Source: a virus
Lineage: Duplodnaviria > Caudoviricetes
Length of the DNA: 64,000 nt
IMG/VR virus record: IMGVR_UViG_3300033475_000012
Location: 1 to 64,000 of that record
Direction: 5' to 3' (one strand)
In this document: positions 1 to 44,528 of the stretch, piece after piece
Numbering within the stretch: position 1 is the stretch's first letter
Layout of the letters: each line of letters starts with the position of its first letter
Position numbers and translations under genes: made by a program
Notes under the pieces: generated by a model
Databases searched by the model: none
Seen by the model: only the letters and a program-made list of their open reading frames with translations
What the model was told of the DNA's origin: nothing

Positions 1-52
1 TCTTTGTTTTGTCATCGATACTTAATTAAATCATATTAAAGACTAAATTTTT

Positions 53-220: not shown

Positions 221-294
221 AATAAAAATATCTCGCCTGCTGGACACCCGATAGCCTAACCCGCATCGGGTTAAGGCGGTAAAAAACGTCAACC

Positions 295-519: not shown

Positions 520-524
520 TTTCC

Positions 525-4123: not shown

Positions 4124-4945
4124 TTATTTTATTTTGATGAGTGGAATTTCGGCTGCGGTTACTATTCGCTGCGGTGTTTTCCGGTGCAAACGCTCGATCT
4201 CGGATAAGAATTCGCGGGCTTTGGTTACCTTTTGGGGAATAAGGACAATCATCTCGTCGTTTCGTGGGACGTCTTTTCGGATCATCCGCTCTTCCAGCGG
4301 GATATAGTCTTCTACGATCAATTCCCGCTTTAATTTTTCCAGTTCTACTAGATACTTGGGGTCTTCTTCCCAAATGACGCCGCTCCGGAAATAAGCCTTC
4401 TTTTGCTCTTCCAGATACAATTCTTCCGGGCAGTCTACCAAGACCCAGCTTACCCGGGCAGCAGGCTTATTATATAGCCACATGTACCCGTTTTGTTGGC
4501 AATCGTACTCCTTGGACACCGGTGTAAACAACCAAGGGAGAAGGGTTATCATTGACCACGGCGCTTTTACGTCCTCGATAATATCGCTTTCTATATCACA
4601 CTCTCCTTGTATCCAATCGTTCTCTTTTCGGACGGTGTTTTTCACATATTCCTTCCTGTCAACGGCCGAAAGTATGTCGATGATCTTCCCCTCGACCATT
4701 TTCCCCTTTTTCATCTCCTTGGTCTCGACCTCAGTCTTAATCCCGTACTTCCATTCTTGGTAAACCTCGTATAAATGGGTCTTGGCCGTCTGGCTAAGGT
4801 TCCCTTTCTCCTTATCCTCCTTTAATTTGGGCTCCGTGAACAGATAATGGAGATTGCTACAGCGGCATTTCCAAGTGTCCCATCTTGTGCTATCGTCGTC
4901 TGGGTTCATTTCCAATATATTCGCCATTGCCAAATTTCCGTCCAT
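4124..4945 (-). CDS. YqaJ/lambda-exonuclease-like PD-(D/E)XK nuclease
   Basis: Motifs 'RCSNLH', 'MKKGKMVE', 'IQGECDI', 'EDVKAPWS', 'YDCQQNGYMWLY'. Confidence 0.8.
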   Translation of the reverse strand: MDGNLAMANILEMNPDDDSTRWDTWKCRCSNLHYLFTEPKLKEDKEKGNLSQTAKTHLYEVYQEWKYGIKTEVETKEMKKGKMVEGKIIDILSAVDRKEYVKNTVRKENDWIQGECDIESDIIEDVKAPWSMITLLPWLFTPVSKEYDCQQNGYMWLYNKPAARVSWVLVDCPEELYLEEQKKAYFRSGVIWEEDPKYLVELEKLKRELIVEDYIPLEERMIRKDVPRNDEMIVLIPQKVTKAREFLSEIERLHRKTPQRIVTAAEIPLIKIK

Positions 4946-4965
4946 ACAGTTTTTATTTAGACAAA

Positions 4966-5208
4966 TCAGTTGTGATCATTTTGGGTAGGCGTAGCGGTAA
5001 AGTAATCCGCAGATTTGCCGGGCTCCGGCTTCGCCGAATCCCAAACGAAGCCATATTTATGACCCATCCGTTTCCAAAATTCATTTGCCGCTTCTTGTGG
5101 GCCATCGCCAGTCCATGTGTTGCCTATTTTCATTACTGGCTCACGTCTGGATGCGATTTCCTTTATTTCCGAAAACTCTTCTGGGGTTAATTGATATTCT
5201 GTATTCAT
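4966..5208 (-). CDS. hypothetical protein
   Basis: 80-aa ORF in minus-strand run. Confidence 0.65.
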   Translation of the reverse strand: MNTEYQLTPEEFSEIKEIASRREPVMKIGNTWTGDGPQEAANEFWKRMGHKYGFVWDSAKPEPGKSADYFTATPTQNDHN

Positions 5209-5241
5209 AACGTTTATGTATTATTTATTTTTGTTTCGCAA

Positions 5242-5583
5242 TTAGCGTTTGTTCTTCTCAGTGTGAAGATATCTATCAGCCCAACTAGCAAAATCGGGAA
5301 AGTTCTCCTGAATCTTTGCTGATATTTTACGAACCATCTTTTTTTTCGGGATATTCCATTTTTTGTGCATTGCATAGGTTCGTAAAACGCTTTCTTGGCC
5401 GACTTGGGACTTAACCCCTTTCCTGCTTAAAAAGACGACTACTCCATGTGTAGTACCTTTCTTTCCTTTCTCCCAAGGCAAAGAACCATCCAGCGTGCGA
5501 GGTATGCCTTTGCCCCGACCAATATACTCACCAGTATAAAAGTCCATATCTCCGTTGATCATCATGTCTGCGATATCTCCCAT
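5242..5583 (-). CDS. hypothetical phage protein
   Basis: 113 aa; 'MGDIADMMING' N-terminus typical of a common small phage family. Confidence 0.7.
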   Translation of the reverse strand: MGDIADMMINGDMDFYTGEYIGRGKGIPRTLDGSLPWEKGKKGTTHGVVVFLSRKGVKSQVGQESVLRTYAMHKKWNIPKKKMVRKISAKIQENFPDFASWADRYLHTEKNKR

Positions 5584-5608
5584 AAATTGATATTTTTGAT
5601 AACGGTTA

Positions 5609-6031
5609 TTACTTGTTAATACACAATTCGTCTAATCTATTTTTATAATGAATCATCAGTTTACCAGGAAGGATATCGTATTTTGCTTTAGCTTCGATTA
5701 ATTGTTCAACCGTCTGGGCGTTATCGAAGTCTATTTCAGCGCGTTCCCATTCTTTGTTATACGATTGTGGTGCTGCCGGGCCAATTGGTGGCGTTTCTCG
5801 AATAGAGCCAGATACTACCTCATTAGTTACTTGCCCTCTCATAGAATCCGCTTCTATTTTTAATTTAGCTGCGACGGCTTCTAATTGTTTATTGGCTTCC
5901 AGCATTCCGTTTTCTACCGGATTAGATAGATTTTCATGCATGGATATATCGGCTTCTATTTGGAGCGTGGTATCCAGAAAATTGGAATAAATAGAAAACT
6001 TTCGCTGAACTAATATACTTTTGTATTTCAT
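5609..6031 (-). CDS. hypothetical protein
   Basis: Likely ATG start at 6031 (MKYKSIL...). Confidence 0.65.
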   Translation of the reverse strand: MKYKSILVQRKFSIYSNFLDTTLQIEADISMHENLSNPVENGMLEANKQLEAVAAKLKIEADSMRGQVTNEVVSGSIRETPPIGPAAPQSYNKEWERAEIDFDNAQTVEQLIEAKAKYDILPGKLMIHYKNRLDELCINK

Positions 6032-6068
6032 AATTAAAAAGTTGGCCCGCATAGAAAATCACCTGGTG

Positions 6069-6132
6069 TGGAGAAGAGAGGGATCGACCCCCTACACGCC
6101 GTCGCGCGTTCTGCCAATTAAACTACTTCCCC
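6069..6132 (-). ncRNA. 64-nt tRNA-like RNA lacking an anticodon arm
   Basis: GGGGAAG-TA-GTTT AATTGGCA GAAC-G-CGCG ACGG CGTG-T-AGGGG GTCGATC CCTCT-CTTCTCC-A: acceptor, D and T arms pair; a 4-bp tetraloop hairpin replaces the anticodon and variable arms. Confidence 0.7.
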
Positions 6133-6135
6133 ATA

Positions 6136-6155
6136 CCCGTCTTTCCGGGCTGTCC
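6136..6155 (-). repeat. GRCA-stem-GAAAGA hairpin, copy 1
   Basis: GGACA GCCCG GAAAGA CGGG, ending 3 nt before the tRNA-like RNA. Confidence 0.7.
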
Positions 6156-6274
6156 CGATTTGCAGATGTGCCGGACAATTGGTTTTGCTGGTCATCCTTC
6201 AGGAAGTTCGCTCCTATACTGCAATCTGGCACTTCTCTTCCTTAGCATTGCAGCGGAGAAATAAGTTTTAAAAA

Positions 6275-6298
6275 GTGCCGGTCTGTTCCCGGCTGCCA
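6275..6298 (-). repeat. GRCA-stem-GAAAGA hairpin, copy 2
   Basis: GGCA GCCGG GAACAGA CCGGC. Confidence 0.65.
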
Positions 6299-6439
6299 CC
6301 ATTAGTTTACGTCCTTATGGGCAAATCTATGGAGCGGCCCGCTGAAGCTTAGACGTTTTGCCGTTGAACCTATCTAACGCTTTAGTCAACGATTGGTAGG
6401 AGGAAGAAGACCGAAGTCTTGCCCATTAGACCAATATCG

Positions 6440-6549
6440 TGCCTCCCGGCCGGATTCGAACCGGCACCCATATCCTACTCAACGTTTTTTCAAATATGGG
6501 CCTTCGTATAGAGCATATACGACGCGTCTACCAATTCCGCCACGTAGGC
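6440..6549 (-). tRNA. non-canonical tRNA-Leu-like RNA (110 nt); probably not a decoding tRNA
   Basis: Leu-type 5' end GCCTACG-TG-GCGGAATTGGTAGACGC and T arm GCCGG-TTCGAAT-CCGGC; anticodon arm is a 7-bp stem with 5-nt loop; enlarged variable arm; 1x2 internal loop in acceptor stem; no encoded CCA. Confidence 0.65.
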
Positions 6550-6552
6550 AAA

Positions 6553-6572
6553 TGCCGTCTTTCCGGCTGTCA
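6553..6572 (-). repeat. GRCA-stem-GAAAGA hairpin, copy 3
   Basis: TGACA GCCG GAAAGA CGGC, stem ending 4 nt before the Leu-like RNA. Confidence 0.7.
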
Positions 6573-7048
6573 GGCTTCTTTTTTCGTGTTTTCAAGGTAT
6601 TGGGACGGACTAGGAGTCATCCCTCATGCCTTACTCACGGCATTCACTCACTGGAAAAAGTCAAACCGCTGTAAGTTTTGCACCCGTGGACGGCCGCGCC
6701 CCTACATTCCCGTTGGACGATAATTTCAGCAATAAGTTTTGCGGGGCGCTCTTCCAAGGACTACTCGCATTCCCGCGCCCGAGGCACGACTGCATTGCAC
6801 CTATAGAGCCTCTGAATGGGTCTTATAACTTTCCCTTCGTTTTTCGGTGATGCTTTAAGTAGAGCGCAGCCTTTAATTGCCCGCAATATATTTAAAGAAC
6901 TAACTTTTCAAAAATGGGAGCCGGTTATTCCTGTGTTGCTCCGACTCCCTTACCCTATGCTGAACGACCCACGAAAGTAATTTTAAAAGCCCCGTTTTGC
7001 CAAGAATGGTTATCCGGGGCCTATTGCTTGCTTGTCTGTCAGAAACAA

Positions 7049-7171
7049 TTATTTCATGCCACCATAATGGCTACGTACCCAATCGCATGAATTATGAGAA
7101 CTTGAACAACTCGAAATCAGAGCGCTAACCAATAAGGATATAATACCTACGTAAAAGAATGCTTTTTTCAT
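7049..7171 (-). CDS. tiny lipoprotein (40 aa, SPase II lipobox)
   Basis: MKKAFFYVGIISLLVSALISS|CSSSHNSCDWVRSHYGGMK, translated by hand. Confidence 0.65.
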   Translation of the reverse strand: MKKAFFYVGIISLLVSALISSCSSSHNSCDWVRSHYGGMK

Positions 7172-7185
7172 GATTTATATGGGTT

Positions 7186-7386
7186 TTAATTTTCTTGTGT
7201 TTCCTGCAATTCAGGATAATCTATTTCTGTTTCCGGAAATTCTTTATAGAATACATACATATTATCCCAGTATCGGCGATGGCGGCCTTTCCACTTCTTT
7301 TCTTCTCGTTTGCCTTTAACGACTAAGTATATAAGGGCCACCGCAATGCAACCACCAGCAATTAATAGGTAATATATAAAAGACAT
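7186..7386 (-). CDS. single-TM membrane protein
   Basis: N-terminal hydrophobic helix followed by basic residues. Confidence 0.65.
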   Translation of the reverse strand: MSFIYYLLIAGGCIAVALIYLVVKGKREEKKWKGRHRRYWDNMYVFYKEFPETEIDYPELQETQEN

Positions 7387-7431
7387 GGCTTTAGGATTTT
7401 TAGCATTAGGATAGAGAACGGGAAAAACGGG

Positions 7432-7605
7432 TTAAGAATTTACATACTCCGTCAGCAAATCAACCATTTTGCGGCTCAAATTTGTCCTCTCCTTGGGGGT
7501 TTTTGCTTTCAAATTTTCCTTATCTATTTTTCTTTTTACCGATAGCATAAGAGATGGATCTATTCTAAACGCGTAACTCGCCTTTTTGTCTTTTTCGCCT
7601 TTCAT
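7432..7605 (-). CDS. ribbon-helix-helix (Arc/MetJ-like) regulator, 57 aa
   Basis: MKGEKDKKASYAFRIDPSLMLSVKRKIDKENLKAKTPKERTNLSRKMVDLLTEYVNS: beta strand YAFRI plus two helices. Confidence 0.6.
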   Translation of the reverse strand: MKGEKDKKASYAFRIDPSLMLSVKRKIDKENLKAKTPKERTNLSRKMVDLLTEYVNS

Positions 7606-7609
7606 GCCA

Positions 7610-7640
7610 CTAAAGTAGTAAAATCTTTTTATCTTACAAA
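7610..7640 (-). promoter_or_regulatory. Bacteroidota sigma70-type promoter, nearly leaderless
   Basis: TTTG-N19-TACTTTAG (consensus TTTG-N19-21-TAnnTTTG), 4 nt before the RHH ATG; AAAATCTTTT direct repeats nearby. Confidence 0.55.
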
Positions 7641-7836
7641 AAAAATCTTTTAAATATTTTTACTATCTTAGTCTTTCAAACAGCGGGAATCTCTTGAAAC
7701 AGCCGCATTTTTTAATTATCAAAAAAAGATCAACATCATAAAAATTACCGAAAGCAGGATTCGTGGCCCCACTACTCCCTAATTATAATAATTAAATATT
7801 AGCAGAAAGGATACAATAATAATGAATTACTATAAG

Positions 7837-7865
7837 AAAGCCCCTTCAATAATGGAGGGGCTTTT
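7837..7865 (-). terminator. terminator ending the late/lysis operon
   Basis: AAAGCCCCT...AGGGGCTTT inverted repeat just after the endolysin stop. Confidence 0.75.
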
Positions 7866-7886
7866 AAAATGCAAACCATTGTGTCG

Positions 7887-8543
7887 CTATGAAAGAGATA
7901 AAAACAAAGCGTTGCCTCCTAATTTATCAGTTTGTACTGTGTTGGGATCAAAGGTTATTCCATTCAATGCTTGCTGGGTGTGCTGAAACATAGAAAATCC
8001 CCTGACGGGAATATCGTCGTCAAAATTATAAGCACGCCAATAAAACTTCACCGGTAGGTCATAAATTTGCGGCGGCGTCAAGCCGTTAGCCCAGCCAACG
8101 TATAGTCCTGGTAGATACCCGGCTACTGAGACCTGAGCCGCCCATTCTTTTACGTAAGCAATTACATCTACAGCAGCAGAGTCTTTAGAAACTCCTTCCA
8201 GATCCAGCCATACATTAACGCCAGAAGGTAGCCCTACAATTTCTTTACAATAAGCAGCGCAATAGCTCCCATAGCTTATTCCTAGCCCTGCTGTTGGATG
8301 CCAGCCATCTGGAGCGACGTGCTGCACTATGGCCAAGCAAAGTCCAGCATTTAGGATTCCTTGGGCCTCTCCGTTGGTCAGATTATCGCGTGATAAGTTC
8401 ACATCTCTTGGCACATATCGGATGCAGAAGGACTTCCCCGCATTCTTAAAGGCGGTTGCCTGAGTCTGCGAAATAGGCTGATTTACATCAAATCCATCTG
8501 CACCATTAGGAAGCGATTTAATAATACCCGATAGAGGTGTCAT
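7887..8543 (-). CDS. endolysin, DUF1906/Rv2525c-like (GH25-like) glycoside hydrolase
   Basis: 'GADGFD..Q', 'AGKSFCIRYV', 'VWLDLEG', 'GYLPGLYVG' motifs; at the end of the structural operon. Confidence 0.8.
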   Translation of the reverse strand: MTPLSGIIKSLPNGADGFDVNQPISQTQATAFKNAGKSFCIRYVPRDVNLSRDNLTNGEAQGILNAGLCLAIVQHVAPDGWHPTAGLGISYGSYCAAYCKEIVGLPSGVNVWLDLEGVSKDSAAVDVIAYVKEWAAQVSVAGYLPGLYVGWANGLTPPQIYDLPVKFYWRAYNFDDDIPVRGFSMFQHTQQALNGITFDPNTVQTDKLGGNALFLSLS

Positions 8544-8653
8544 TGTGCATCAAATTGAGAAAGTGTATAAAACAAGAGAGCCAATGACGCAATCAGAGTG
8601 AACAAACACCCTATAATGCGCCATTGGCGTTCCGATTTAGATTCTTCAGCCAT
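8540..8653 (-). CDS. 37-aa single-TM peptide; candidate holin/antiholin/lysis regulator
   Basis: MAEESKSERQWRIIGCLFTLIASLALLFYTLSQFDAQ; TGA overlaps endolysin ATG; starts 1 nt after upstream stop. Confidence 0.6.
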   Translation of the reverse strand: MAEESKSERQWRIIGCLFTLIASLALLFYTLSQFDAQ

Positions 8654-8654
8654 G

Positions 8655-9554
8655 TTAGTTGTTCAGGCCGTTGATGGGGCCAGTAACCGCCATTAGTTTA
8701 TTGGTTGAGGTATTATATCCTACCCCTACAACCAATTTGAAAGGCAATTCCGCATTAAATATAACCTGCGTTGATACCGTAAGGGCGGCCACACCAACAA
8801 TGCCAGTCCCAACAGCCCCACCCGGCCCTCCCAAAAGAGATACCCCAAATTTCTGATAGAACCTTTGCTTGGCCGCATCCCACACGTCATTCTCCCAGCC
8901 AATACCATAAACAACTGCGACGGCGGAAGTCGAAATGCTCAACGGTTTGAACGAAACACCATACAGAGCGCCGGCCCCTTGCAATCTCACTCCTTTAAAA
9001 TTTGTCCCCGGCGTGAGAGTGTCGCCTAACATTATCGCATGTGCTCTAGGGGTGGCTGAGATAGATATGCCGGCCGGATGAGCAATTGGGGCAGTGATGC
9101 TTTGCGCATGGCATACACTTCCCAAACAAATGAGTAAGATGATAATGCCGACTTTTGGGGACGCTTTTACTACTTTGCCCGTCGACTGTGCGTTTAACGT
9201 GCCATTCGCAATTTTGGCCGTTTTAGCCTTACTAAGATAACCCCACACTATCGGAACCGACAGAATAACAAAGGAAGTGATGGCGGCTAGTTCGCTGGAA
9301 TTTAACAATCCGGAACCTACTAGCAATCCTCCAGCGCCTTGCAGCAGTTGACGAACGAGGCTTTCCAATGTTTCTTCTGTAGCTGTGCCATTATAAATTG
9401 ACCACCCTATACTTCCGGCTGTGAGCATGCCGCCAGTAATTGTGTCCCATGTTGGCCCCAAAAGAGGATGTCCGAAAATGGTTTTACCAATGAGAAAGGT
9501 TCCTATCAGCGTCAACAATGCGCGGACTAAAGAACCAAGTGTTGAAGTGTTCAT
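8655..9554 (-). CDS. holin-like multi-TM protein fused to an internal signal peptide and beta-rich domain
   Basis: Duplicated 2-TM unit (SLVRALL.. / SLVRQLL..), then KVGIIILLICLGSVCHA|Q and alternating beta-strand-like segments. Confidence 0.55.
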   Translation of the reverse strand: MNTSTLGSLVRALLTLIGTFLIGKTIFGHPLLGPTWDTITGGMLTAGSIGWSIYNGTATEETLESLVRQLLQGAGGLLVGSGLLNSSELAAITSFVILSVPIVWGYLSKAKTAKIANGTLNAQSTGKVVKASPKVGIIILLICLGSVCHAQSITAPIAHPAGISISATPRAHAIMLGDTLTPGTNFKGVRLQGAGALYGVSFKPLSISTSAVAVVYGIGWENDVWDAAKQRFYQKFGVSLLGGPGGAVGTGIVGVAALTVSTQVIFNAELPFKLVVGVGYNTSTNKLMAVTGPINGLNN

Positions 9555-9563: not shown

Positions 9564-9815
9564 TTAATTAGGAATATGATGTTGATTTAATTCCACAGAA
9601 TTTAGCCTTCCCTTAAAATCTTCGTCATTTAATTGAAGCTGATTAACGATTGGCTTTATCTCTTCTACGGAATTTATTCTTTCTTCCAATACGGCCAATC
9701 GGCTATCTATTTTATTTAAAGTCACTATAACGCCGATTATCCCCGCCACAATTAATGACTGAATGACATTTGAGAACAATTTATCCATCTTTATAGGGTT
9801 AGTATTGGCAGGCAT
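9564..9815 (-). CDS. TM plus coiled-coil lysis-module protein (holin- or i-spanin-like)
   Basis: One TM helix then 'RLAVLEERINSVEE' coiled coil, in lysis cassette. Confidence 0.55.
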   Translation of the reverse strand: MPANTNPIKMDKLFSNVIQSLIVAGIIGVIVTLNKIDSRLAVLEERINSVEEIKPIVNQLQLNDEDFKGRLNSVELNQHHIPN

Positions 9816-9831: not shown

Positions 9832-11556
9832 TCAATTATGGTAAAGTCTGCTTCCTCTATGTCTTAAAAAAGTATTTGACGGATTTACAGTGATCGTGTC
9901 ATAGGCTACATTTGTTTTCCACATTATATCAGTAGTGCTGTCTTTGAAAATATAGGGACCGGGAACAGATAATCCAGATATGGGAATATTAGCTCCCGTA
10001 TTAAATGGCATGACAGGCGTAACGGGGCCTGACACAAAAGTTACCACATTAAGATACTCTTTAGACCCAGACGCATATGATATGGAAGGCGTGATTGTAG
10101 CTGACGTAACGCCAGATAAAACTTGATTGGACGAATGTACTGCAGGGGCCGCTAATGTCCCATTATAACACCCTGTTCCCTGACTGCAATTGGTAGCTCC
10201 CGGATTGGCTATGCAATAAAAACAAGTAGGGGTGATAAGTGACCCACTGGTTATGGCAAAAGGAAATATTTGAATGGGATAAGGGATATTCACCATATCT
10301 GGATAGGTTCCATTTAGCCCCCCTGCTGGATAATCGCAAGAAGCCCTATTGTCCATTATTTGCCCCGACTTTCCGCGACCCCATGCCCACGATTCCCCCT
10401 TATTATTCACAAAAACAGCATTCCAGCAATTAGACGGACCCATATAACCACATACCCAATTATGCGTACCAGGGCATACGCTCACCCAAGAGGAAGTTAG
10501 GTATTCTCCTAATCCATTATCGTACGCATATGGTTGGGGAGTCGATCCAGCAGGAGGAGGACTGACAGAATATCCATTCATAGGATACATTTGTCCATTA
10601 CCGATTTCTCCGCATATATTATCTCCGCTAGATATAAGACAAGAATCAACACCAGATTTATTTCCGATTAAAAACACAGCCCCAGCATCCGCAAATGCTT
10701 TTTTGGCTAAGAAAGTACCCACCGAAGCAGAAATGAAAGATGTTATATTTTGTGGTGTATTGGATGTAGATGCGCTTGGACCAGCAAAATACTTTGGATG
10801 ATCACCAATCCCCAATGTCTCGCCGTCGTCTAAGACAATAACGCCAAAAGGACCCGCATCGGCTATATCAACCGCATATCTACCTGATGGCAGTCGGATG
10901 GTATCTGGAAGTGTATAAGGCACCGTTGGGCTACTTCCTCTCCCCAACTGCGCCTTATTGTTAGCTGCTGCCCAACTCCACACATGACCCTTACTGTCCA
11001 ACGCCAGTAATACATATTGTCCCGTTACTTTAATAATATGTGTTCCGTTGGGAAAAGTAGCCCACACAAAAGAAGTTTGATTAACCGCATTATCCGTTCC
11101 ATTACCATGCAGGCCGCCAGCTAGTTCGCCGGCTATTCCTACTTGTCTTCCTGTAGTACTATCGGTAGTTACGATTACATCTGTCCAATATGGAGAGGTA
11201 TTTGAAGCGGTACAATATAATTGAGTGACTGCCGGAAGTGCAGTCCCCGCACTATCAACAGTGATATTTATAGGGCCGCCACACGAAACGCCAAAAACAC
11301 TACCGCCGACATATAAATTACCAGGAGCGATAGGGCCAATATACCCGTCATCATGCGGGCCACCGAATATTTCGGCAACGTAACTCGGCTGTCCTGTACA
11401 AGACTGAGGCACGACATTTAAGATATGATACGCCTTGTGCGTTGACGCCCTATACACAAGATTGCAGTATTCCGCCAAATAAGGATGATCCACCGTGTCT
11501 GGGTTCTGACCCATCAAAATAGTTGGCAATAATAATATAATTAAAATAAATTTCAT
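9832..11556 (-). CDS. secreted RCC1-repeat-like/PKD-like protein, putative receptor-binding or accessory fibre
   Basis: Signal peptide MKFILIILLLPTILMG|Q; RCC1-like 'LALDSKGHVWSW...QLG' and 'SWAWGRGKSGQ'; C-terminal 'GPYIFKDSTTD..YDTITVN' PKD-like; Cys-rich. Confidence 0.6.
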   Translation of the reverse strand: MKFILIILLLPTILMGQNPDTVDHPYLAEYCNLVYRASTHKAYHILNVVPQSCTGQPSYVAEIFGGPHDDGYIGPIAPGNLYVGGSVFGVSCGGPINITVDSAGTALPAVTQLYCTASNTSPYWTDVIVTTDSTTGRQVGIAGELAGGLHGNGTDNAVNQTSFVWATFPNGTHIIKVTGQYVLLALDSKGHVWSWAAANNKAQLGRGSSPTVPYTLPDTIRLPSGRYAVDIADAGPFGVIVLDDGETLGIGDHPKYFAGPSASTSNTPQNITSFISASVGTFLAKKAFADAGAVFLIGNKSGVDSCLISSGDNICGEIGNGQMYPMNGYSVSPPPAGSTPQPYAYDNGLGEYLTSSWVSVCPGTHNWVCGYMGPSNCWNAVFVNNKGESWAWGRGKSGQIMDNRASCDYPAGGLNGTYPDMVNIPYPIQIFPFAITSGSLITPTCFYCIANPGATNCSQGTGCYNGTLAAPAVHSSNQVLSGVTSATITPSISYASGSKEYLNVVTFVSGPVTPVMPFNTGANIPISGLSVPGPYIFKDSTTDIMWKTNVAYDTITVNPSNTFLRHRGSRLYHN

Positions 11557-11590
11557 TCTAAAATCCTATTATGTAGCATGTTTTTATTAT

Positions 11591-13912
11591 TTACTCTAAA
11601 TACCAATTTGTAGATCCGGCTACTATAATCCTACTTATCCCAGCCGTTATAGTTAACGTAGTAACTTGAGATGTATCATATATATGATCACCAGATGCAG
11701 CATTTAGTGTGATGCTCGCAGAACCTGCATTCTTAATATAATATTTCTTCCCTTGAGAACCACTTAAAGAAGGAAGAGTCCATATTGTTGCCGAAGATCC
11801 GGTAAATACGTAATCAGAAATACCGGAAAGAGTTAGTGTTGTAGCAGAAGTTTCTGATAAATTAGTCTCAGAATTAGTGCTGAAAGAATTTATGACAACC
11901 CAAGTAGAGGCAATATCTTGAATTACATACCAAGTATCTGAATTTAAAGTGGTCAATTTAGTTGACAAATCAGGGAAATAGACATTTGATAAGAAAGACC
12001 AAGTATTAGTTCCCCCTAAATTATAAAAACTTATCTGCCTCCCACTTCCCGTAGCTGACGGAAGGGTTATTGTTAGATTAGATGAAGGAGCGCCAAGGTA
12101 ATATATAGGTACCCCTTCGGTAACTGTTAAATTTGAGCTAGTACTTGGAGAATTATATCCAAAATATAAACTTGTGAATAAATTAAAAATGCTCGTACCC
12201 CCGGACAAACTCAAAGTTTGACCATTCATATTTATGGAGGTTGATTTATTTAATGTTCCACCTAAAGATATTGTATCTGTTCCTCCAATAGGTCCGGTTA
12301 TTGTCAATCCATTTAATGCCTTAAGCGTATCTGTTGGCAAAGAAGGTGCAATCTTGGCAGCTATGGCGGACCATGTAAATCTACGCGTTGAACTGTCTGG
12401 CATCCATCCCATAAGACCAATTGAATTTGTCGTGTCTTGAGACATGCCAGTATATTTCCACGTTCCACTGCCGCCTAAAGCTATTGTTGTAGCAAAACCA
12501 GTTCCAGTTATGGTATTGGAGCTACTAAGAATGGACCCCGTTGTTATAACTTGCTGCAATGTTTGAGACCCCCCTCCCGATATAGCACCCTCGATCACAT
12601 TTCCCGAGGCATCCACATTAAGCGCATATGTTGGTGTGCCCGTATTTGTGCCTGAGCCATAACCAGTAATCGCCATCTTTCCACCCGAAGGTACTATGAT
12701 CAGTTTTCCGGCGCTGTTGGTCTGCCATGTGGTATAATGAGTGGCATCATAATGGGCAGCCAACTGCGGCTGAGTGGTGGACGTAATTTGGACCAACCCA
12801 GTAGAATTATCAATAGTACCGCCGACGAGAAATTTTTGCAATTCGGTGAACCGTGCAGCTTCTGCTTGTGAGCTGCCATTGGTGCGTGTCAGAATTTTTA
12901 AGCCCGCGCTATAATCCCCAGAGGTGGAATTGGCCTTGTACCCTTTCAACATTGCGCCGCCCGTATATTGAGGGGTCGTATTGAACTCGACGCCGAAATT
13001 GATCGTCGCTCCATTTCCAGCCGCCATGCCACTATTATCATTCAGCATCAGTGTTCCCGCATAGGGTTGTCCAGGCTCTGTGGCCAGAATCTCCATCGGT
13101 GAATATTGGGCATTGTTATCTGTAGAAGTAGACGGCGAGCCTACAAATAGATGCTTGACATTTGTCGTTTGGGTATTATCCAGCGATAACACCTGTAACA
13201 GAGCCGAAGGTGTGGCGGAGTTATTCGTCCAGAAATCCATCTCTCCGGGCATGTTAGTGGTAGACGGTGTGCCGGTCACCCGAGCGGAGATAAGGGCCGC
13301 TACCTGCGGTACGGTACCATTATAGCCGCTGAATTGAAAGCCACCCAGTGAGTCGCCAGAAGATGGAGTGCCAGGCGATGCAAATGAGCCACGGGTCTTG
13401 TAGAAATTGATATAGCTGCAGCCCGTTCCCGCGACCGATCGTTGAATCATAATTCCCGGCTTCAGCGCGCCGGACTCATTATGAAAAAGGTGAAAGTCCA
13501 TTTTCGGGGCAGTGCCGACATTCAACCCCAGAGCTATATTAGTCGGATCAAGATAATAGTTTCCAGACTGAGCAAGCAGTCCAGAACCATCCGTGTACAG
13601 AAGCTGATTGGCTGTAGATCCCGATACGCTGCCCCCTATGGCCATCCCTGCACCACCACCACCTCCCGAAGTGCCGTAGATGTTAACTGGATGAACGCTT
13701 GTTGTGATATAGTACAGGCCGCCAGTGATTGTCGATCCCAGACTATCCTGCACAGCACAGAGCATTGGGTAACTTGAGGACGAAGGAAGGTCCGAAACAT
13801 GCGTGTAGAGCGGGATAAATAACTTTCCTCCTTTCCCGCCCCAGCCGTAAAGCATCTGTGATCGCGCCGTAAACGCTATCGAACAACAGAGTATGAAAAG
13901 CAGCTTCTTCAT
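11591..13912 (-). CDS. tail-fibre-like protein with Sec signal peptide
   Basis: MKKLLFILCCSIAFTARS|Q; Gly/Ser/Thr-rich; 'LNVDASGNVI' and 'QTLQQVITTG' segments typical of Bacteroidota phage fibres. Confidence 0.7.
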   Translation of the reverse strand: MKKLLFILCCSIAFTARSQMLYGWGGKGGKLFIPLYTHVSDLPSSSSYPMLCAVQDSLGSTITGGLYYITTSVHPVNIYGTSGGGGGAGMAIGGSVSGSTANQLLYTDGSGLLAQSGNYYLDPTNIALGLNVGTAPKMDFHLFHNESGALKPGIMIQRSVAGTGCSYINFYKTRGSFASPGTPSSGDSLGGFQFSGYNGTVPQVAALISARVTGTPSTTNMPGEMDFWTNNSATPSALLQVLSLDNTQTTNVKHLFVGSPSTSTDNNAQYSPMEILATEPGQPYAGTLMLNDNSGMAAGNGATINFGVEFNTTPQYTGGAMLKGYKANSTSGDYSAGLKILTRTNGSSQAEAARFTELQKFLVGGTIDNSTGLVQITSTTQPQLAAHYDATHYTTWQTNSAGKLIIVPSGGKMAITGYGSGTNTGTPTYALNVDASGNVIEGAISGGGSQTLQQVITTGSILSSSNTITGTGFATTIALGGSGTWKYTGMSQDTTNSIGLMGWMPDSSTRRFTWSAIAAKIAPSLPTDTLKALNGLTITGPIGGTDTISLGGTLNKSTSINMNGQTLSLSGGTSIFNLFTSLYFGYNSPSTSSNLTVTEGVPIYYLGAPSSNLTITLPSATGSGRQISFYNLGGTNTWSFLSNVYFPDLSTKLTTLNSDTWYVIQDIASTWVVINSFSTNSETNLSETSATTLTLSGISDYVFTGSSATIWTLPSLSGSQGKKYYIKNAGSASITLNAASGDHIYDTSQVTTLTITAGISRIIVAGSTNWYLE

Positions 13913-16900
13913 TTATTTGCCATTGATTGAAAGGTGAAAAACATAAGTCGTCGATGGATCAAGCGGTATGGTCCCGGATGTGATTAATGGATAATTGAAT
14001 GATCCGGTATAAGTAGCCAGCGGCATTGCATCCCCTGCCAACTGCTTGGCTGCCGTGTTGGCGGGGGTGATCACTGGCGCGATACCTACTGTCGACCAAG
14101 CAATATCAAATCCATATACCATTATGGTGGCGCTAGCCGCCGGGCTTGTTCCGGTCGCGATAGTTATATCCCCCCCCAAACTGGTTGAGAAGCCGGATAG
14201 GGTCACCGTCCCGCCTGTACCCAAACCCGTTCCAGTAGAGAAAACAAACGCAGCCCCGCTGGCTCCTTTCGGCCATGCCACAGAGTAAGCAGTGCCGTAG
14301 TTGTGCTCGTAGTAATATCTTGTGGCAGCGGCCACCGTGCTGGTGGCGAAAGCAGGCCCGGGCCCCATTTCGTTCAGCGTCACATTGCTGTTAGCGCTCA
14401 GATCTACCGAATCACCGGTGAAATTGGTGCCAATGACATTGACCTGAAGCGGAAACGCGGCATTCACATATAGACCGTAGCTCGGAGTGAGGGTATTGGA
14501 GATATTCAGGTTCTCGAGCGTCACCTGCTGGTTTGCCAGAGTAGATTCGATCCGGATAAGAGATCCAACGTTGTGCTCGAACCAGGTTCCCCGCATCGTC
14601 AGCATAGAGACGCCTACCGTATTGGGGTTGGTAAAGTGGACACCGCCGGTATTTGTATTGTGCGTTGTTCCTTCATCGCTGATATCTCCGCCTTCGATGA
14701 TGATACCGCCTTGGGTTTGATTGACATTGAAAGCCCAGCTTGCGCAATTGTAAATGTGGCAGTGGACGAAGGTAATCAGGTTAGGAGCCACAAACCCACC
14801 GGGGGACCGGTTGATCGTGTCGGCATTGACTGCTATCGGGCACCATTTGATCAGCATATTATTAAACTGACCAGTAAGAGTACCCTTCAAATTTAATCCT
14901 ATGGAAGTACAAGAATCTATCGCTATATCGTTCCATTTAAACCAATAAATATATTGCAAATTCATTCCAATAGAAGCCTTATTATGCCCTTCTAAAAGCA
15001 TAGCACTAATGGGAGCATATCCATATCCTGGGGCATTCCCAACATTAGTTCCTGGAATAGTTATAAATGTATTATTATTCCATTTAATCATAGTATCCCC
15101 AACTACTATTTCAGATAGTATTGTATTGTTAATACCTGCCCCCATTATAGAAACATTAGGCATCCCAGTCATATCAAGAGAACTCCATGCCCATACTCCT
15201 GGTGGTATCCACACTGTTCCTCCTCCATGAGAAAAAGCAGAATCAACACATGCTTGAACATAAGGAGATATATCAGTTCCAGTACCGCTCATAGACATAG
15301 TTACGCCATAGTCAGTAACCCGGTAAAACGGCAACAATACTGTTCCTGTTCCGCTTGAGTTTATAGTAACCCCGCCTACATGAGTTACCGTGTCTATTGT
15401 CACATTTGTTCCAGCAAATAATTCTCTAATAGCAGATGCGTTTAAATTGAATAAAGGGAATCCTCCTGAAGGAGTATTGCTTAATGATGTCTGTATGCTT
15501 GATACCGGCGCTTGAATCACATTACCGGATACATCGGACTGAAGAAACGCTAAGGGTGTTCCAGGAAAAGAAGTTGCTGTTGTATAGTTATTTAGTTGGA
15601 CCTGCCCGGTTGAAATTAAAGTAATTCCAACGGATGCCCCAACAGATAGGCTTGATGAAAAACCACTAGCGCTTGCCAACGTTGCGGCTGCATCTGAATT
15701 AAATACTCGAGAAAAAACATGTGATGCGGCATTAGTTAGTGTACCTATTTGGTAGGTATTATTTGCCGAAAAGCTAATATTATTCCCCATTATAATTCCG
15801 CCATTAAATGTTTGCGGATTTGTCACCCATGTATTGCCATGAGCCAACGCCAAAGAAGCCACTACCGCTCCTGTTGTCGGAGTAATGTTCAACGTACCGT
15901 CTGAATTAGAAACAGATGATACCGTGCCGCCGCTGCTGCCTGTCGAATCTAATATTTCGTGTAATCTCCCACCAATCGTGAATTTGATGCTATCCACCCC
16001 TGGCGTACGCCACAATGTATCTAATCTATCGTTAACCGATATTACATAAGGAGTTCCTAAAGTTCCCGATCCCGTTAATGACCCATTTGATCCTGAAAAT
16101 GTGACAAGTCCTGTAATATTTGATAGTTTACCATTAAATGTATTCCAGTCTGTTGATAACAAATAACCATTTTGAGATGTTCCAGCAGCTTGCTGAGTAA
16201 TTGTTAAAGCATTTGCATTGGCAGAAGAATCCCATCCAATACCTGCTGAAGTGCTTCCAAATACTGTCTTGATGTTATTTGTATTTGGAATAGCCCATCG
16301 ATATCCTGTTCCGACATTAGAGTTTGTATTACCGCTTCCGCCGCCTCCCGTATTTGATATAATACCACCGGAAATAGATATCCCTGTACCGGCAGTCATA
16401 TTCACTAAATTTCCTGAATTATCATATCCGACAATAGTATTGGCTGAATTTGAAAAATTACCCAATAGACCGGAAAAGTTTGACGTAACAAGTCTAGTCC
16501 CCGTACCTGCCAAAGAATTAATACTGAAATTTCCACTATTGTCAATATTCGCCCGGTTGGATGAATTTGTTTGAAAAATCAAAGAATTTCCTACGGAGGA
16601 TAATATCAATGGTGTTCCGCTTATGGTTAACTGTCCTCCACCGCTACTAAAAGTGGATATGCCGCCACTTGTTCCTCCTATCAAAAGATTACCATTGCTT
16701 GTTCCCAAACTTGAACCTATCGACAATGTATTACTGGATGTGTTGTACAAGAATTGACCCACTCCGCCTAGTGTCCCAGAATTATTGAAAATAACTTGCT
16801 GATTGGAACTTGAAATGGCGTTCTGTTTATTCCCTATTTGTGATGGAGTTACATAAGTAGTTCCGCTATCTCTTTTTCGGATAAAGAAATTTCCCATAGC

Positions 16901-17446
16901 TGCGCTATCGGCATTAAACACCTTAGTTGTCCCGGAGATAGATTGAGTGATCCATAACCCCGGATTAACAGCAGAATCTACACTTCCGGAAGTATTGCAC
17001 GTTGGACACGAAATTACCCCTGTAGATTGATTGAAAGATATAGGAGATGTTCCGGATATGGCATTAAGGCCTACTTTGGTCGCCAATTGCCCGTAAACGC
17101 CATTTCGCATAGTGTCTACTGAAAACTTTGTAGCATAAGTAAGACTGTCTGAAAAAGATAATATTTGACGCCATGTATGTCCTCCTGAAATCACCGTGTC
17201 TCTATACCATAAATGCCTAGAGCTATCGTCGTATACAATTCCACCTAAAGTATCAAGGCCCGAATTTAACCCAAAACCATTTACGGGATTGAATCCATGT
17301 ATATGCGGGGCATACATATTCAAAAGAGCCCTCCAACGGGAGTCTTGTACGGTTACAGAAGAATTTGATCTGGGGGGCGCAAACGTCTGAGCGGAGGAAG
17401 TTATTCCAACGATCACCAAAATGAAAAGTATAATGAGTTTCTTCAT
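13913..17446 (-). CDS. tail spike/fibre with pectate-lyase-like beta-helix (depolymerase) and Sec signal peptide
   Basis: Start MKKLIILFILVIVGITSSA|Q at 17446, 1 nt after upstream stop; 'VTDYG...TD..YVQACVDSA...GGGTVWIPPG' beta-helix N-cap. Confidence 0.75.
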   Translation of the reverse strand: MKKLIILFILVIVGITSSAQTFAPPRSNSSVTVQDSRWRALLNMYAPHIHGFNPVNGFGLNSGLDTLGGIVYDDSSRHLWYRDTVISGGHTWRQILSFSDSLTYATKFSVDTMRNGVYGQLATKVGLNAISGTSPISFNQSTGVISCPTCNTSGSVDSAVNPGLWITQSISGTTKVFNADSAAMGNFFIRKRDSGTTYVTPSQIGNKQNAISSSNQQVIFNNSGTLGGVGQFLYNTSSNTLSIGSSLGTSNGNLLIGGTSGGISTFSSGGGQLTISGTPLILSSVGNSLIFQTNSSNRANIDNSGNFSINSLAGTGTRLVTSNFSGLLGNFSNSANTIVGYDNSGNLVNMTAGTGISISGGIISNTGGGGSGNTNSNVGTGYRWAIPNTNNIKTVFGSTSAGIGWDSSANANALTITQQAAGTSQNGYLLSTDWNTFNGKLSNITGLVTFSGSNGSLTGSGTLGTPYVISVNDRLDTLWRTPGVDSIKFTIGGRLHEILDSTGSSGGTVSSVSNSDGTLNITPTTGAVVASLALAHGNTWVTNPQTFNGGIIMGNNISFSANNTYQIGTLTNAASHVFSRVFNSDAAATLASASGFSSSLSVGASVGITLISTGQVQLNNYTTATSFPGTPLAFLQSDVSGNVIQAPVSSIQTSLSNTPSGGFPLFNLNASAIRELFAGTNVTIDTVTHVGGVTINSSGTGTVLLPFYRVTDYGVTMSMSGTGTDISPYVQACVDSAFSHGGGTVWIPPGVWAWSSLDMTGMPNVSIMGAGINNTILSEIVVGDTMIKWNNNTFITIPGTNVGNAPGYGYAPISAMLLEGHNKASIGMNLQYIYWFKWNDIAIDSCTSIGLNLKGTLTGQFNNMLIKWCPIAVNADTINRSPGGFVAPNLITFVHCHIYNCASWAFNVNQTQGGIIIEGGDISDEGTTHNTNTGGVHFTNPNTVGVSMLTMRGTWFEHNVGSLIRIESTLANQQVTLENLNISNTLTPSYGLYVNAAFPLQVNVIGTNFTGDSVDLSANSNVTLNEMGPGPAFATSTVAAATRYYYEHNYGTAYSVAWPKGASGAAFVFSTGTGLGTGGTVTLSGFSTSLGGDITIATGTSPAASATIMVYGFDIAWSTVGIAPVITPANTAAKQLAGDAMPLATYTGSFNYPLITSGTIPLDPSTTYVFHLSINGK

Positions 17447-17447: not shown

Positions 17448-17885
17448 TTAAAACGTTTGAGGCCCATTGATGAATATCAAGAACAAATCTGCCGAAGTAT
17501 AAGTGCCGGGGATAAGAATTTGGACACCAGACACGCCTCCGACTATATCGGGAGCCCATGTGCTATTAGGATAAGATGGAGATGCGGAATTATAGGTTAA
17601 AAATCCTTGACCTTGATAATAAACAATCAGATTAAACCCAGACAAAGGATTGCCAGATGGTGGAATATATTTATTTGATCCATTTAAATCAGCCCCAGTA
17701 AACATTATAATTCCATTGCTGAAAAGCTGGTTATAAAGACACTGCTTAACCGATCCCCACGTACGGAAGGCATATCCCCCAGTCTGGCCTGCTACATTTA
17801 TGAAAAGGATTTGTTCGTTGTCGGCGGGGCACCCGGAGGCCAGCGGCGCTAGTGTAGAAAATTCTCCTTGACAAGGTGCTGCCAT
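17448..17885 (-). CDS. small structural protein, possible fibre adaptor
   Basis: 145 aa, beta-rich, directly upstream of fibre genes. Confidence 0.55.
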   Translation of the reverse strand: MAAPCQGEFSTLAPLASGCPADNEQILFINVAGQTGGYAFRTWGSVKQCLYNQLFSNGIIMFTGADLNGSNKYIPPSGNPLSGFNLIVYYQGQGFLTYNSASPSYPNSTWAPDIVGGVSGVQILIPGTYTSADLFLIFINGPQTF

Positions 17886-21429: not shown

Positions 21430-22001
21430 TTGCTTTGAATTAAATATTTTTTAGCTAAATCTGGATTGTTTAAAGAACGAACGTAGTCTTCCATGTTAAC
21501 TCCGAAGTCATATTTTTCTCCTGTATTGGTCGATCTATATGAAGTAGGGTAGAAGAGACGGCTTGTGATACTGCCTAACCAACCGTCCACCGGAGATACT
21601 TCTCGGTCAAGATAAGGACTAGTTCCACTTGCCGTTCTAAGACCTCTTTTTATGAAGGCAATTTCTTCCGGCTTTAGTCCGGGGAACCTATCCGTTTTTC
21701 TCAAAAGGTATTGCTCATATTGGATGTTTGGTATGATAGATGGATCAATGGCTCTATCTGGATTAGCGGCATTCCATTTTTTCAAATAGGATAACCCTAA
21801 GGTTTGATCCCTTTTGTCCAAATCAGCCTTCCCACCTACGCCTTCCTTTTGCAGGTAATCCAAAAAGTCGTTCCAATCCTTCCGCTGCATGACAGAAAGA
21901 GTCTTATACCCTTTTGGCGCGTCTTTGTATTCATCAGAAGGCGGTGTCCCCCCGCCGCCTTTGCCACCACCCTCTTCTGCCATATAGTAAAGTCTTATCA
22001 T
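21426..22001 (-). CDS. hypothetical protein with scaffold-like N-terminal leader
   Basis: MIRLYYMAEEGGGKGGGG; coupled to giant cargo gene and GNAT. Confidence 0.7.
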   Translation of the reverse strand: MIRLYYMAEEGGGKGGGGTPPSDEYKDAPKGYKTLSVMQRKDWNDFLDYLQKEGVGGKADLDKRDQTLGLSYLKKWNAANPDRAIDPSIIPNIQYEQYLLRKTDRFPGLKPEEIAFIKRGLRTASGTSPYLDREVSPVDGWLGSITSRLFYPTSYRSTNTGEKYDFGVNMEDYVRSLNNPDLAKKYLIQSK

Positions 22002-25000
22002 TCTGGATTTTCTTCGTTTTGACGGTAAATCTCGTCTATTTGCTGATTCATTTCATTCATGATTTGCCCTCGACGTTCGGCCTTTTCTTCTTTGGAAAGA
22101 CTTGTGTTTGTCTCCACTTCAGTAATTTGATCTCGATAAGCCTTTTGGGTAGCCACAGCTTGTTTATAATATCCTTCTGATAATGCGCCCTTTTTGCTGA
22201 ACCCTGGAAGATGGATGAGATAATCGGATGGGCGAAATACTTTACGCTTCATTGGGTTTCCGTTTTGATCCACATCCTGCCATTGACCCGAAGCGTATTT
22301 TTGCTGAATGCTTTGAATTGCGCCGCCAGCTAATGGCCCGGCTACTTTATCGATCATTGGAATCGAATTCATGATGTGGTTGATGTGAGTCAAGGCGTCA
22401 TCCGAAACCGCCCTTGCCGTAGACTCGCCATCTACTATTTTATTTTGATATACCTGAACCAGAGACAACCCAAACAATGCGGATTGAAGTTGGGGAGCGT
22501 GTTCCATTATTTTAGCCGCCGTCTCCGGAACCACCCAATCTCCTATTTTTATTTCAGAGGTCTTTATCTCTGGAACCCCTGTTTCCAATTCTCTTTTTAA
22601 CTTCTTTTGGTCTTCTGCCGTCTGCCCCTTATGAGCGAATCCGCCAAAGGCCGCATGACCCAAGACGGCCAACGCGTATATGCCTAGTCCAAATCCACCT
22701 TTACGGTAGGCCCTAACAATAGCAGCGGCCTTATCGGCATCCATTTTTTGCAACTGTTCTCCCAATTCCTTTTTGAACTGTGCTCTTTCATTTTCTCCCC
22801 ACTCTGACTGAAGGACTATTTTCTTTGCTTTTAAATATTCCTTGCCGGCAATCCAAGAGCCGGTTAATGCCCCTAGCGTATATTCCATAATCCCTTCGTA
22901 GAGCATATTAATAGGAACACGGGTAATAGCTACATCCGCCCGCATAAGGTAAGCCAACCCCTCTCCCAACTTTCTCGTTTTAGACCCTTCCGTACCAATT
23001 CGTTCTACGGCATTGGTGGCCGAATTCCATGCATCGGTTATAGCGTTACTCTCTTGATACTTGCCTCTTTCAAAGTCTTGGTAACTTTCATTAGCAAGTT
23101 CCAATATCTTATCAGCCTTTGATACATCTACTCCATTTTGTACGGCATATTCCAAGCGAGCCATGAACCCAGCAGAAAAGCTAAATCTTCCTGAAAAATT
23201 CTTTAATGCAGCATGAGAACGACCGAAGAAGTTGATGAGGTACGACCAATTATCTATATCCGACAAGGACCGTTTAGACAACAATGCCTGTTCACCTCTT
23301 TTGTCCCATGCTTCCCGGTCAAAATTGCCCATATTCCGTTCTAACTCAGTAGAACGATGAAGAAACACATCCCACCCTTCAGACAAAGACTTCCCTGAAA
23401 TAAAGTCATACATTTTATACCCAACGGAATTTACAAGGGCATCATTCTTAGCATTCTGCAATTGGCCCAATTTTTTCTCAGCAGAACGATATTCGTCCGT
23501 ATCTTTTCCAACGGCGTATTTGATTCGATTGACCTCTTTTTCTTGATCCTGAAAATCCCCTAATGCCTTATGGTATTTATCAGAAGCGTCTTGGTACATT
23601 TTACCTATCTTATCTTCGCTATACTGTCCAAGATATGCCTTCCATCCACGTTCTATTTGTTTTACGTTACTTCCTTCCCCGCCTGCCTTAGCTCGTTCGG
23701 ATACCGTCTTAGTAAAATCAGTAGGTATTTTTTCGAATAACTTACCTACAGTAAGTTTGGTGGCCGTTTCGATAGTAGGACGAATAACGGCGCTTCCGGC
23801 CACTTTTAGGAAAGTGATAGGACTTCCGATCAATCCGGCAACCTCAGCCCCACGCAAGAACTCCCATGCCCGTCTCATTCTGGTTTTGTTATCTTTCTGG
23901 AATGTCTTTTGACGGTTCTTATATATTTGACCAATAGCATTTTTCTCCCTTTCCAATTTAAGTAGTTCGGCGTCGGTTTTGGATAAGACAGTGACCGGCT
24001 CGTCCTCGTATTCCCCATTGTATATTTTTTTAAAATACATCTCAGCATCTCTCTTGGCTTTATCCTTGGCCCTTTTCAGTTTTATTTCTTGTTCTGATTC
24101 ATTCTTATCGGTATCGAATCCATCCACAGCCTTTTGTAAGGAGCGCCGAATGTCGGCAGCTTTTGAAATATCCCCGCTTGTATTTCTGTTGAATTCGCTT
24201 TGAAGACTTTTTAACAAGGACAACCCTCCATCCAAGGTTCGTTCTTGACTTAATGCCGAAGTTGGGTCTAAAACAATACCAGATGCGTCCAATTGAGATT
24301 TCAATTTTTTTAGGGCCTTTTCTGAATCCGTAGACAGTTCCCCTTTAGACAGCTTTTCTTCAATGGATTTTGAGATATCATTAAGTCGATCATTATGGGA
24401 TTTGGCTCGTTGATCATAAGAAGACTTCTTATACTTATCCTCCCCGGTAATTTTAATGCCCATTGAATCCATAAGATTCTTTCTCTCCCTTTCTTTGGCT
24501 TCAATGGTTTTATCCTCCGGTAACGGTTTACTACTATCTCTTCGAAATATATCCTTCTTATTTTTTAGGTCGTTGATATCTTTTTCAAGTTTAGCCAGTT
24601 TATCGAATTGGCGTTTCGCATCTTTAAAACCACTTTCCAATTGTTTCTTAGTCATCTGCTTAAAATCACCTTGCTTCAGATAGGCTTCCAGCAAACGGTC
24701 TTTTTCTACATCCGGAAGAATAGTTTTAAGTTGGTTCGCAGCTACGTCCAATATTTCATTAGCATCATGCAATCCTACATGAGAATTAATGTAATCCCGG
24801 ATAAGATTTTGGCCTACCATTTCGTTGGTAACGTCCATTACGCCATTGTTTTCAGCAAAGTCCTTTATTTTTTCAAAGGATTCGGCACGCATATCCTGTT
24901 TATCAAGAACGGCAAGTAGATTATCCGTAAACTGCTGCTTATTCCCCCCATGTTCTTTGATGAAACTATCTATGGCTTCGGCCAACGTTGCACCCTTCTC

Positions 25001-44522: not shown

Positions 44523-44528
44523 GGTTTA

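Follow-up and report, generated by a model that had tools for sequence, protein, structure and literature searches.

Three adjacent genes of an uncultured crAss-like phage of Bacteroidota encode large proteins that are very probably exported from the host cytoplasm and that we consider likely, if by no means certain, to be the phage's receptor-binding or glycan-acting appendages. The genes lie in the window analyzed here, the first 64 kb of the linear, 80,291-bp viral contig IMGVR_UViG_3300033475_000012 of IMG/VR (estimated to be about 69% complete). Their products of 1177, 773, and 574 amino acids each begin with a Sec-type leader followed by Gln, and the genes occupy the distal end of the virion and tail module, after the virion genes and ahead of a holin and an endolysin gene. 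The original prediction had described three consecutive leader-bearing genes and had taken them for exported receptor-binding proteins; their open reading frames (ORFs) and N-termini are as it quoted them. Export is strongly supported by the conserved leader architecture and the invariant Gln of the homologues described below. The receptor-binding identity is plausible, in view of position and synteny, module content, an RCC1-like fold, and mass-spectrometry annotations of analogous Cellulophaga phage proteins.

Predicted Sec-type leaders on three consecutive genes

Leaders were called with a simple heuristic for n-, h-, and c-regions, which we ran over the approximately 95 ORFs of the whole contig. 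The heuristic flagged five ORFs, the three adjacent genes and two others outside the window (Table 1). No head, portal, terminase, giant 'cargo', or polymerase-like ORF was flagged, in agreement with the earlier observation that head, ring, nozzle, and cargo proteins have no such leader. Two gut Bacteroides phages served as controls: the first 50 kb of crAss001 had no flagged ORF among those called, and B40-8 had one.

All three leaders have an MKK or MK n-region and an h-region of 13–14 residues, and Gln is at position +1 in each of the three proteins. The SSA and ARS ends of the 1177- and 773-residue proteins' leaders are canonical at −1 and −3; the LMG end of the third leader, with Gly at −1 and Leu at −3, is a weaker site. 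The AlphaFold model of the 1177-residue protein shows residues 2–16 as a lone helix with a predicted local distance difference test (pLDDT) score of about 90. The premise that Gln commonly follows the cleavage site in Bacteroidota was correct: about 71% of signal peptidase I substrates across the phylum follow this Q-rule, and the Gln is cyclized by glutaminyl cyclase (PMC10653852).

The leaders were said to be genuine N-termini, and the gene layout bears this out. The 1177-residue protein starts 1 nucleotide from the upstream stop (17448–17450), the 773-residue protein begins directly after the stop of the 1177-residue protein's gene (0 nucleotides), and 34 nucleotides separate the third gene from the second. 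An in-frame ATG at 17467, seven codons upstream of the start of the 1177-residue protein, merely extends the n-region.

Routing as a lipoprotein through signal peptidase II was considered and rejected: none of the three leaders has an [ASG]-C motif at the end of the h-region, and the CC of the 773-residue protein's leader follows Leu. No type IX sorting domain (C-terminal domain, CTD) was matched in the three proteins by NCBIfam or Pfam at E ≤ 0.1, although divergent CTDs are possible.

Table 1. Leaders, domains, and genes discussed in the text, in window coordinates unless marked as contig coordinates (↓, predicted cleavage).
Feature	Position	Strand	Basis or remark
Sec-type leader MKKLIILFILVIVGITSSA of the 1177-residue protein, residues 1–19	17390..17446	−	predicted cleavage before Gln20
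Leader MKKLLFILCCSIAFTARS of the 773-residue protein	13859–13912	−	predicted cleavage before Gln19
Leader MKFILIILLLPTILMG of the 574-residue protein	11509–11556	−	Gln at +1
Conserved N-domain of the 1177-residue protein, residues 20–105, TVQDSRWRALLN.Y.PH...LN.GLDTLG...RDT..GGH.W	17132..17389	−	about 85 residues, always right behind the leader
Seven-bladed RCC1-like beta-propeller of the 574-residue protein	residues ~25–430		model, predicted template modeling score (pTM) 0.71
Cys-rich linker, then C-terminal beta-sandwich, of the 574-residue protein	sandwich, residues ~470–560		model
1177-residue spike-like protein	13913..17446	−	ORF
773-residue fiber-like protein	11591..13912	−	ORF
574-residue RCC1-like protein	9832..11556	−	ORF
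83-residue protein, transmembrane segment and coiled coil, first gene of the lysis block	9564..9815	−	slot and architecture as crAss001 gp27
Holin-like protein (Pam3-gp28-type), 299 residues	8655..9554	−	Pfam PF23987 Phage_holin_10, E 3.5e-16, two matched stretches
Endolysin-like glycoside hydrolase	7887..8543	−	Pfam PF08924 Rv2525c_GlyHyd-like, E 2.4e-18
577-residue lipoprotein-like ORF (...AVFAIGC↓G), outside the window, non-structural region	contig 73131–74864	+	heuristic
130-residue ORF (...GKG↓QD), outside the window, non-structural region	contig 76310–76702	−	heuristic

Leader architecture is conserved while leader sequence drifts

The leaders recur in homologues that were found without them. 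We used residues 20–130 of the 1177-residue protein, which exclude the leader, as a phmmer query against 1.84 billion representative proteins and obtained 90 representative proteins that share the N-domain. The start of this domain lies at residue 19–43 in 88 of the 90; two N-terminally truncated proteins, where it lies at residue 5 or 9, make up the rest. Of the 90 proteins, 81 passed the leader heuristic and 80 show a small-x-small↓Q site. Most of the other nine come from gene calls that extend too far upstream or are truncated, yet they have junctions of the ...FSQTF- or ...HAQTF- type. Gln20 is an invariant column in both N-domain alignments (54 and 17 sequences).

The leaders of the family have a median length of 19 residues, and with an uncharged stretch of 14–18 residues they are too short to serve as membrane anchors. 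Averaged over pairs of sequences, identity amounts to 42% in the N-domain, against 24% in the leader and 17% downstream. The sequence of the leader thus drifts while its architecture stays constant, which is the behavior of a signal peptide.

The family of the 574-residue protein gave a similar picture. All 13 homologues (38–69% identity) carry a leader, with Gln clearly at or near +1 in nine of them and cleavage sites that are mostly xKA↓, xFG↓, or AMA↓. A scan of 185,579 bacterial and archaeal species genomes detected no member of either this family or the N-domain family, which argues that the genes belong to phages and are not host morons. Conserved internal starts were also considered and rejected: Met20 of the 773-residue protein and Met15 of the 574-residue protein are not kept in homologues.

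Domain architecture of the three proteins

The 1177-residue protein consists of its leader, the N-domain, a long middle part rich in Gly, Ser, Asn, and Thr, and a C-terminal region. Residues 707–757 resemble the start of a pectate lyase, with a weak rhamnogalacturonidase match (E 0.0028) that is far under the cut-off. The relatives of this protein have only the N-domain in common, behind which they carry GDSL/SGNH esterase, SASA sialate-O-acetylesterase, pectate-lyase-like, BNR, fn3, or DUF5907 modules. A constant N-domain combined with esterase and lyase modules is the usual design of a tailspike. The full-length AlphaFold model has a mean pLDDT of 40 and is confident only in the leader helix and residues ~40–100. 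A VIA-align search with this model gave weak structural matches to the N-domain (Z ≤ 4.0), many of them N-terminal or neck domains of tailspikes, and we treat these as no more than a lead. Two members of the family matched only internal fiber-like repeats of cyanophages and other phages by tblastn, never the N-domain.

For the 773-residue protein no sequence match was found in Pfam, PHROG, or the PDB; its nearest ESM Atlas clusters are viral and fiber-like (PTL_trimer, Mtd_N, head fiber, Peptidase_S74), which we take as a lead only. The 574-residue protein is modeled as a beta-propeller followed by a beta-sandwich. At 22.1 bits its Pfam RCC1 match exceeds the cut-off of 21.7; WD40_RLD reaches E 1.8e-10 but stays below its own cut-off. 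Foldseek searches with the model retrieved UVR8, RCC1, and HERC2 at E 1e-14 to 1e-12, with TM values by target of 0.6–0.7, and similar RCC1 propellers occur in annotated tail fibers of Pseudomonas phages. As modeled, the 574-residue protein is a binder, not a fiber.

Other homology searches with the three proteins were negative: tblastn against 50,697 phage records and a search of PHROGs found no match for any of them, sub-regions had no Pfam match at E ≤ 1, and the PDB sequence search returned nothing meaningful.

O-glycosylation sequon and cysteine content

The Bacteroidota O-glycosylation sequon D-[ST]-[AILVMT] occurs at 3.0 times the expected frequency in the leader-bearing proteins of the contig, compared with 1.2 times in the leaderless ones. 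The enrichment is 2.9-fold in the 90-member N-domain family and 3.9-fold in the family of the 574-residue protein, which fits exposure to a periplasmic O-glycosylation system of the host. A leaderless 329-residue protein (44529–45518, minus strand), encoded beside the putative major capsid gene, has six sequons where 0.9 are expected, so the enrichment is not exclusive to exported proteins.

The many Cys residues of the 574-residue protein had been read as a sign of disulfide formation in the periplasm. This argument had to be given up, because leaderless proteins of the virion module are equally rich in Cys: the content is 2.4% in the 574-residue protein, and 2.4% and 3.5% in the leaderless proteins of 1006 and 375 residues.

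Leader-bearing genes in the tail-fiber region of other phages

Genes with the N-domain were found at the end of the tail module, ahead of small membrane proteins and the lysis genes, in other viral contigs (L002, L005, L006, and L011). L002 is a related phage that also has a homologue of the 574-residue protein and pieces of the 1006-residue protein. L005 has two leaderless fiber-like genes followed by four consecutive genes with leader and Gln, and L011, a 46.6-kb contig, has four large genes of this kind (922, 1333, 526, and 562 residues) among the genes downstream of its head genes. The presence of a major tail protein and a tape measure protein indicates that L006 is siphovirus-like. In another contig (L016), an RCC1 protein is paired with another large leader-and-Gln protein.

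A comparable arrangement exists in two cultured phages of Cellulophaga baltica. In phi18:3 (podovirus, Pachyviridae, NC_021794), gp085–087 have MKK-hydrophobic-small-x-small↓Q leaders and precede the lysis genes; in phi10:1 (siphovirus, Assiduviridae, NC_021802), gp091–095 have leader-and-Gln N-termini and lie just before the lysis region. As in the window, runs of three to five consecutive large leader genes close the tail module. GenBank annotates gp085–087 of phi18:3 and gp091–094 of phi10:1, but not gp095, as virion, structural, tail, or tail-fiber proteins 'based on experimental MS/MS proteomics' (MS/MS, tandem mass spectrometry), and the leader-bearing products include a 'pectate lyase' and a 'tail fiber'. 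These annotations are the best available evidence that leader-bearing proteins of the tail-fiber slot reach particles. No sequence similarity between the Cellulophaga proteins and the three window proteins could be detected, and the Cellulophaga proteins are depleted in the O-glycosylation sequon (0.3–0.4 times expectation) where the window proteins are enriched (3 times). We found no discussion of their leaders in the literature, the original study (Holmfeldt et al., 2013) being outside the scope of our search.

Between phi18:3 (4545–8584) and phi10:1 (44100–47391), which infect the same host, two leader-bearing virion proteins have near-identical leaders and N-terminal regions. The identity is 83% over the first 118 residues of gp086 (phi18:3) and gp093 (phi10:1), and 59% over 70 residues in the other case. 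Because a podovirus and a siphovirus share these regions, the N-terminal module moves between tail types, and gp086 and gp093 cross morphotypes as the N-domain family does here.

In the gut phage crAss001 (Kehishuvirus) the same slot holds tail fibers and spikes, gp22–26, followed by gp27 (a transmembrane and coiled-coil protein annotated as 'lysis regulatory protein'), a holin, and an endolysin. The annotations of gp22–26 are likewise glycan-acting (polygalacturonase/tailspike, hyaluronidase, lectin); unlike the window proteins, however, gp22–26 have no leaders, and the two sets share no sequence similarity. The gp22 fiber docks on the cytoplasm-built tail hub through its free N-terminal residues 1–26 (PMC10172136). 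The virion membership of the three window proteins is thus something we infer from crAss001 synteny, from their glycan-acting modular architecture, and from the MS/MS-annotated Cellulophaga analogues.

Two further systems bear on how such proteins may behave. The mosaic adhesive trimer (MAT) fibers of Bdellovibrio bacteriovorus have a signal peptide, a conserved beta-rich N-domain, a trimeric shaft like that of phage tail fibers, and interchangeable glycan-binding tips (Caulton et al., 2024, PMC10769870), which shows that fibers of this kind can fold after Sec export. They resemble the N-domain proteins in layout but are encoded by the bacterium and displayed on its own cell surface, with no virus particle involved; they also offer a concrete model for a non-virion, envelope-anchored role. 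Prophages of Porphyromonas gingivalis encode proteins of unknown function with signal peptidase I leaders that expose Gln, and these were interpreted as modifiers of the host envelope (Matrishin et al., 2023, PMC10367356). Those proteins belong to temperate phages and, unlike the window proteins, were not described as fiber-like or as lying in the tail-fiber slot.

Our literature searches found no paper that describes Sec leaders on, or Sec routing of, tailed-phage fibers. The window contributes a phage-only N-domain family that occurs across tail morphotypes and stands strictly behind a Q-rule leader, a partner family of exported RCC1 propellers, and negative controls from gut Bacteroides phages.

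Gene context

Nearly all genes of the window are on the minus strand. They run from a terminase (PHROG 6681) through a portal-sized ORF, capsid-region ORFs, and giant ORFs of 1006, 1585, and 2698 codons to a GNAT/peptidase/ATP-grasp group, two small ORFs, and the three leader-bearing genes, and the run closes with the 83-residue protein, the holin, and the endolysin. A scan for promoters and terminators gave no signal above chance, with no terminator-like intergenic site between the three genes and the lysis genes. The phage is apparently lytic.

Several neighboring genes deserve mention. Small transmembrane proteins that resemble the 83-residue protein come after the leader-bearing genes in L002, L005, and L011. 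The holin-like protein (8655–9554, minus strand) contains an in-frame internal leader-like segment ending in IIILLICLGSVCHA and followed by QS, and then a beta-rich tail of about 150 residues; a fusion of a holin with a domain that is exported or sits in the outer membrane is one possibility, and a spanin substitute is another. Residues 9–73 of the 2698-residue protein (21998–30094, minus strand) are 68% identical to the product of gp122 of Cellulophaga phage phi18:3, a small gene just upstream of the gene for the 1935-residue virion protein gp123. This was the sole strong link found to a cultured phage. The Cys-rich, leaderless 1006-residue protein (40814–43834, minus strand) adjoins the capsid genes and corresponds in L002 to two separate genes (4337–6478 and 7388–8455) with an endonuclease-like insert between them. 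It is a candidate head fiber, decoration protein, or tail part, for which the ESM Atlas gave only weak, fn3-like leads; PDB sequence searches with the virion-module proteins of 1006, 1585, and 488 residues returned nothing meaningful.

Proposed assembly route and alternative explanations

We propose a route in which virion parts are made in two compartments. The three proteins would be made late, from the tightly packed minus-strand run that they share with the virion and lysis genes, and would be threaded through the SecYEG translocon of the host. Signal peptidase I would cut just before Gln, probably followed by pyroglutamate formation, and the proteins would fold, and probably also become O-glycosylated, in the periplasm. 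The resulting appendages would be a modular spike whose conserved N-terminal domain serves docking or trimerization, a fiber, and an RCC1-propeller binder, which would recognize the host by binding or cutting glycans. Capsids and tails would be built in the cytoplasm, so that the appendages could meet the particle only once the holin and endolysin, encoded next to them, have opened the inner membrane; we hypothesize that docking takes place after lysis. Taken as a whole, we consider this model about as likely to be right as wrong.

Several observations weigh against it. The N-domain occurs in podovirus-like or crAss-like as well as in siphovirus-like genomes, and it and the Cellulophaga proteins thus cross tail types, which is odd for a tail-specific docking domain and equally fits an anchor in the host envelope. 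The leaderless fiber-like proteins encoded just upstream in L005 imply that exported proteins need not be the sole receptor binders, and leaderless fibers could also lie in the part missing from the incomplete window contig, of which an 89-kb variant exists. Leaders are missing from the fibers of crAss001 and B40-8, two phages of gut Bacteroides. Detection by MS/MS in purified phage could reflect co-purifying outer-membrane vesicles, L011 shows no sequon enrichment and the Cellulophaga proteins show the reverse, and the three proteins have no sequence homology to a characterized tail fiber or spike in Pfam, PHROG, INPHARED, or the PDB.

Alternatively, the proteins could be exported but never join the virion, which we regard as rather unlikely. 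They would then be secreted or envelope-anchored glycan esterases, lyases, and binders that strip or remodel the capsule or surface glycans of the infected cell, so that progeny are released, receptors on debris are destroyed, or superinfection is blocked; or else they would be surface adhesins. The N-domain would in that event serve as an envelope anchor, as in the Bdellovibrio MAT fibers. The N-domain is not bound to one tail type, the enzymatic modules are just as typical of secreted enzymes, the three genes abut the lysis cassette, leaderless fibers coexist with leader-bearing proteins in L005, and the P. gingivalis phage Q-rule proteins were interpreted as host-envelope modifiers (PMC10367356). 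However, the Cellulophaga analogues are annotated as virion proteins from MS/MS data, one of them under the name tail fiber, and no other fiber- or spike-like gene is evident in the tail-fiber slot of the window or across the 20-kb locus of L011. The constant N-terminal and variable C-terminal parts, together with the gene position, match receptor-binding proteins, and the logic of lysogenic conversion does not apply to families that are absent from bacterial genomes in a phage that looks lytic.

A dual localization, in which a fraction of each protein leaves the cytoplasm as a free enzyme or binder while another fraction, arising from internal starts or escaping export, enters virions in the cytoplasm, strikes us as improbable. 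Free and virion-bound forms of depolymerases are known for other phages. Met20 of the 773-residue protein lies right behind the predicted cleavage site and is taken as the start in another gene call (P0029), and Met15 of the 574-residue protein lies ahead of its cleavage site. Yet these Met residues vary among the homologues, as noted above, the 1177-residue protein has no Met near the site, and the invariant Gln right behind the leader speaks for selection of the cleaved form. We give very little credence to the idea that the leaders do not serve export at all and are hydrophobic N-terminal helices buried in fibers, or propeptides cut by a phage protease, with assembly taking the usual cytoplasmic course. 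Predicted 'signal peptides' on P. gingivalis phage capsid proteins have been attributed to processing by a prohead protease (PMC10367356). Against this stands the recurrence, in 80 of 90 diverse proteins and despite the drift of the leader, of the n/h/c architecture, a length of 17–28 residues, small residues at both −1 and −3, and an invariant +1 Gln specific to signal peptidase I substrates of Bacteroidota. The sequon enrichment, taken here as specific to leader-bearing proteins, points the same way, and since the fibers of crAss001 and B40-8 do without leaders, such helices are no structural need.

Implications

In textbook accounts the assembly of tailed phages is wholly cytoplasmic. As a tentative generalization, in which we have less confidence than in the proposed route for this phage, many non-gut Bacteroidota phages, short- and long-tailed, may send all of their receptor-binding appendages through Sec, with a Q-rule cut, a pyroglutamate cap, and periplasmic glycosylation, and let them dock onto cytoplasm-built particles when the holin opens the membrane; the N-domain of about 85 residues would then be a portable module for docking after lysis, and tailed phages would have a two-compartment assembly pathway.

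If a wide range of Bacteroidota phages export their host-recognition proteins, the timing of lysis would itself become an assembly step. Infectivity would hang on the Sec machinery, signal peptidase, and glutaminyl cyclase of the host, and the periplasmic chemistry of the host, namely pyroglutamate capping, O-glycosylation, and disulfide formation, would shape the host range and stability of the phage. Annotation pipelines that read a signal peptide as evidence against a structural role would misfile receptor-binding proteins. Even if the three proteins stay off the virion, lytic phages would have an undescribed infection strategy, built on a conserved family of large exported proteins that act on glycans and occur only in phages.

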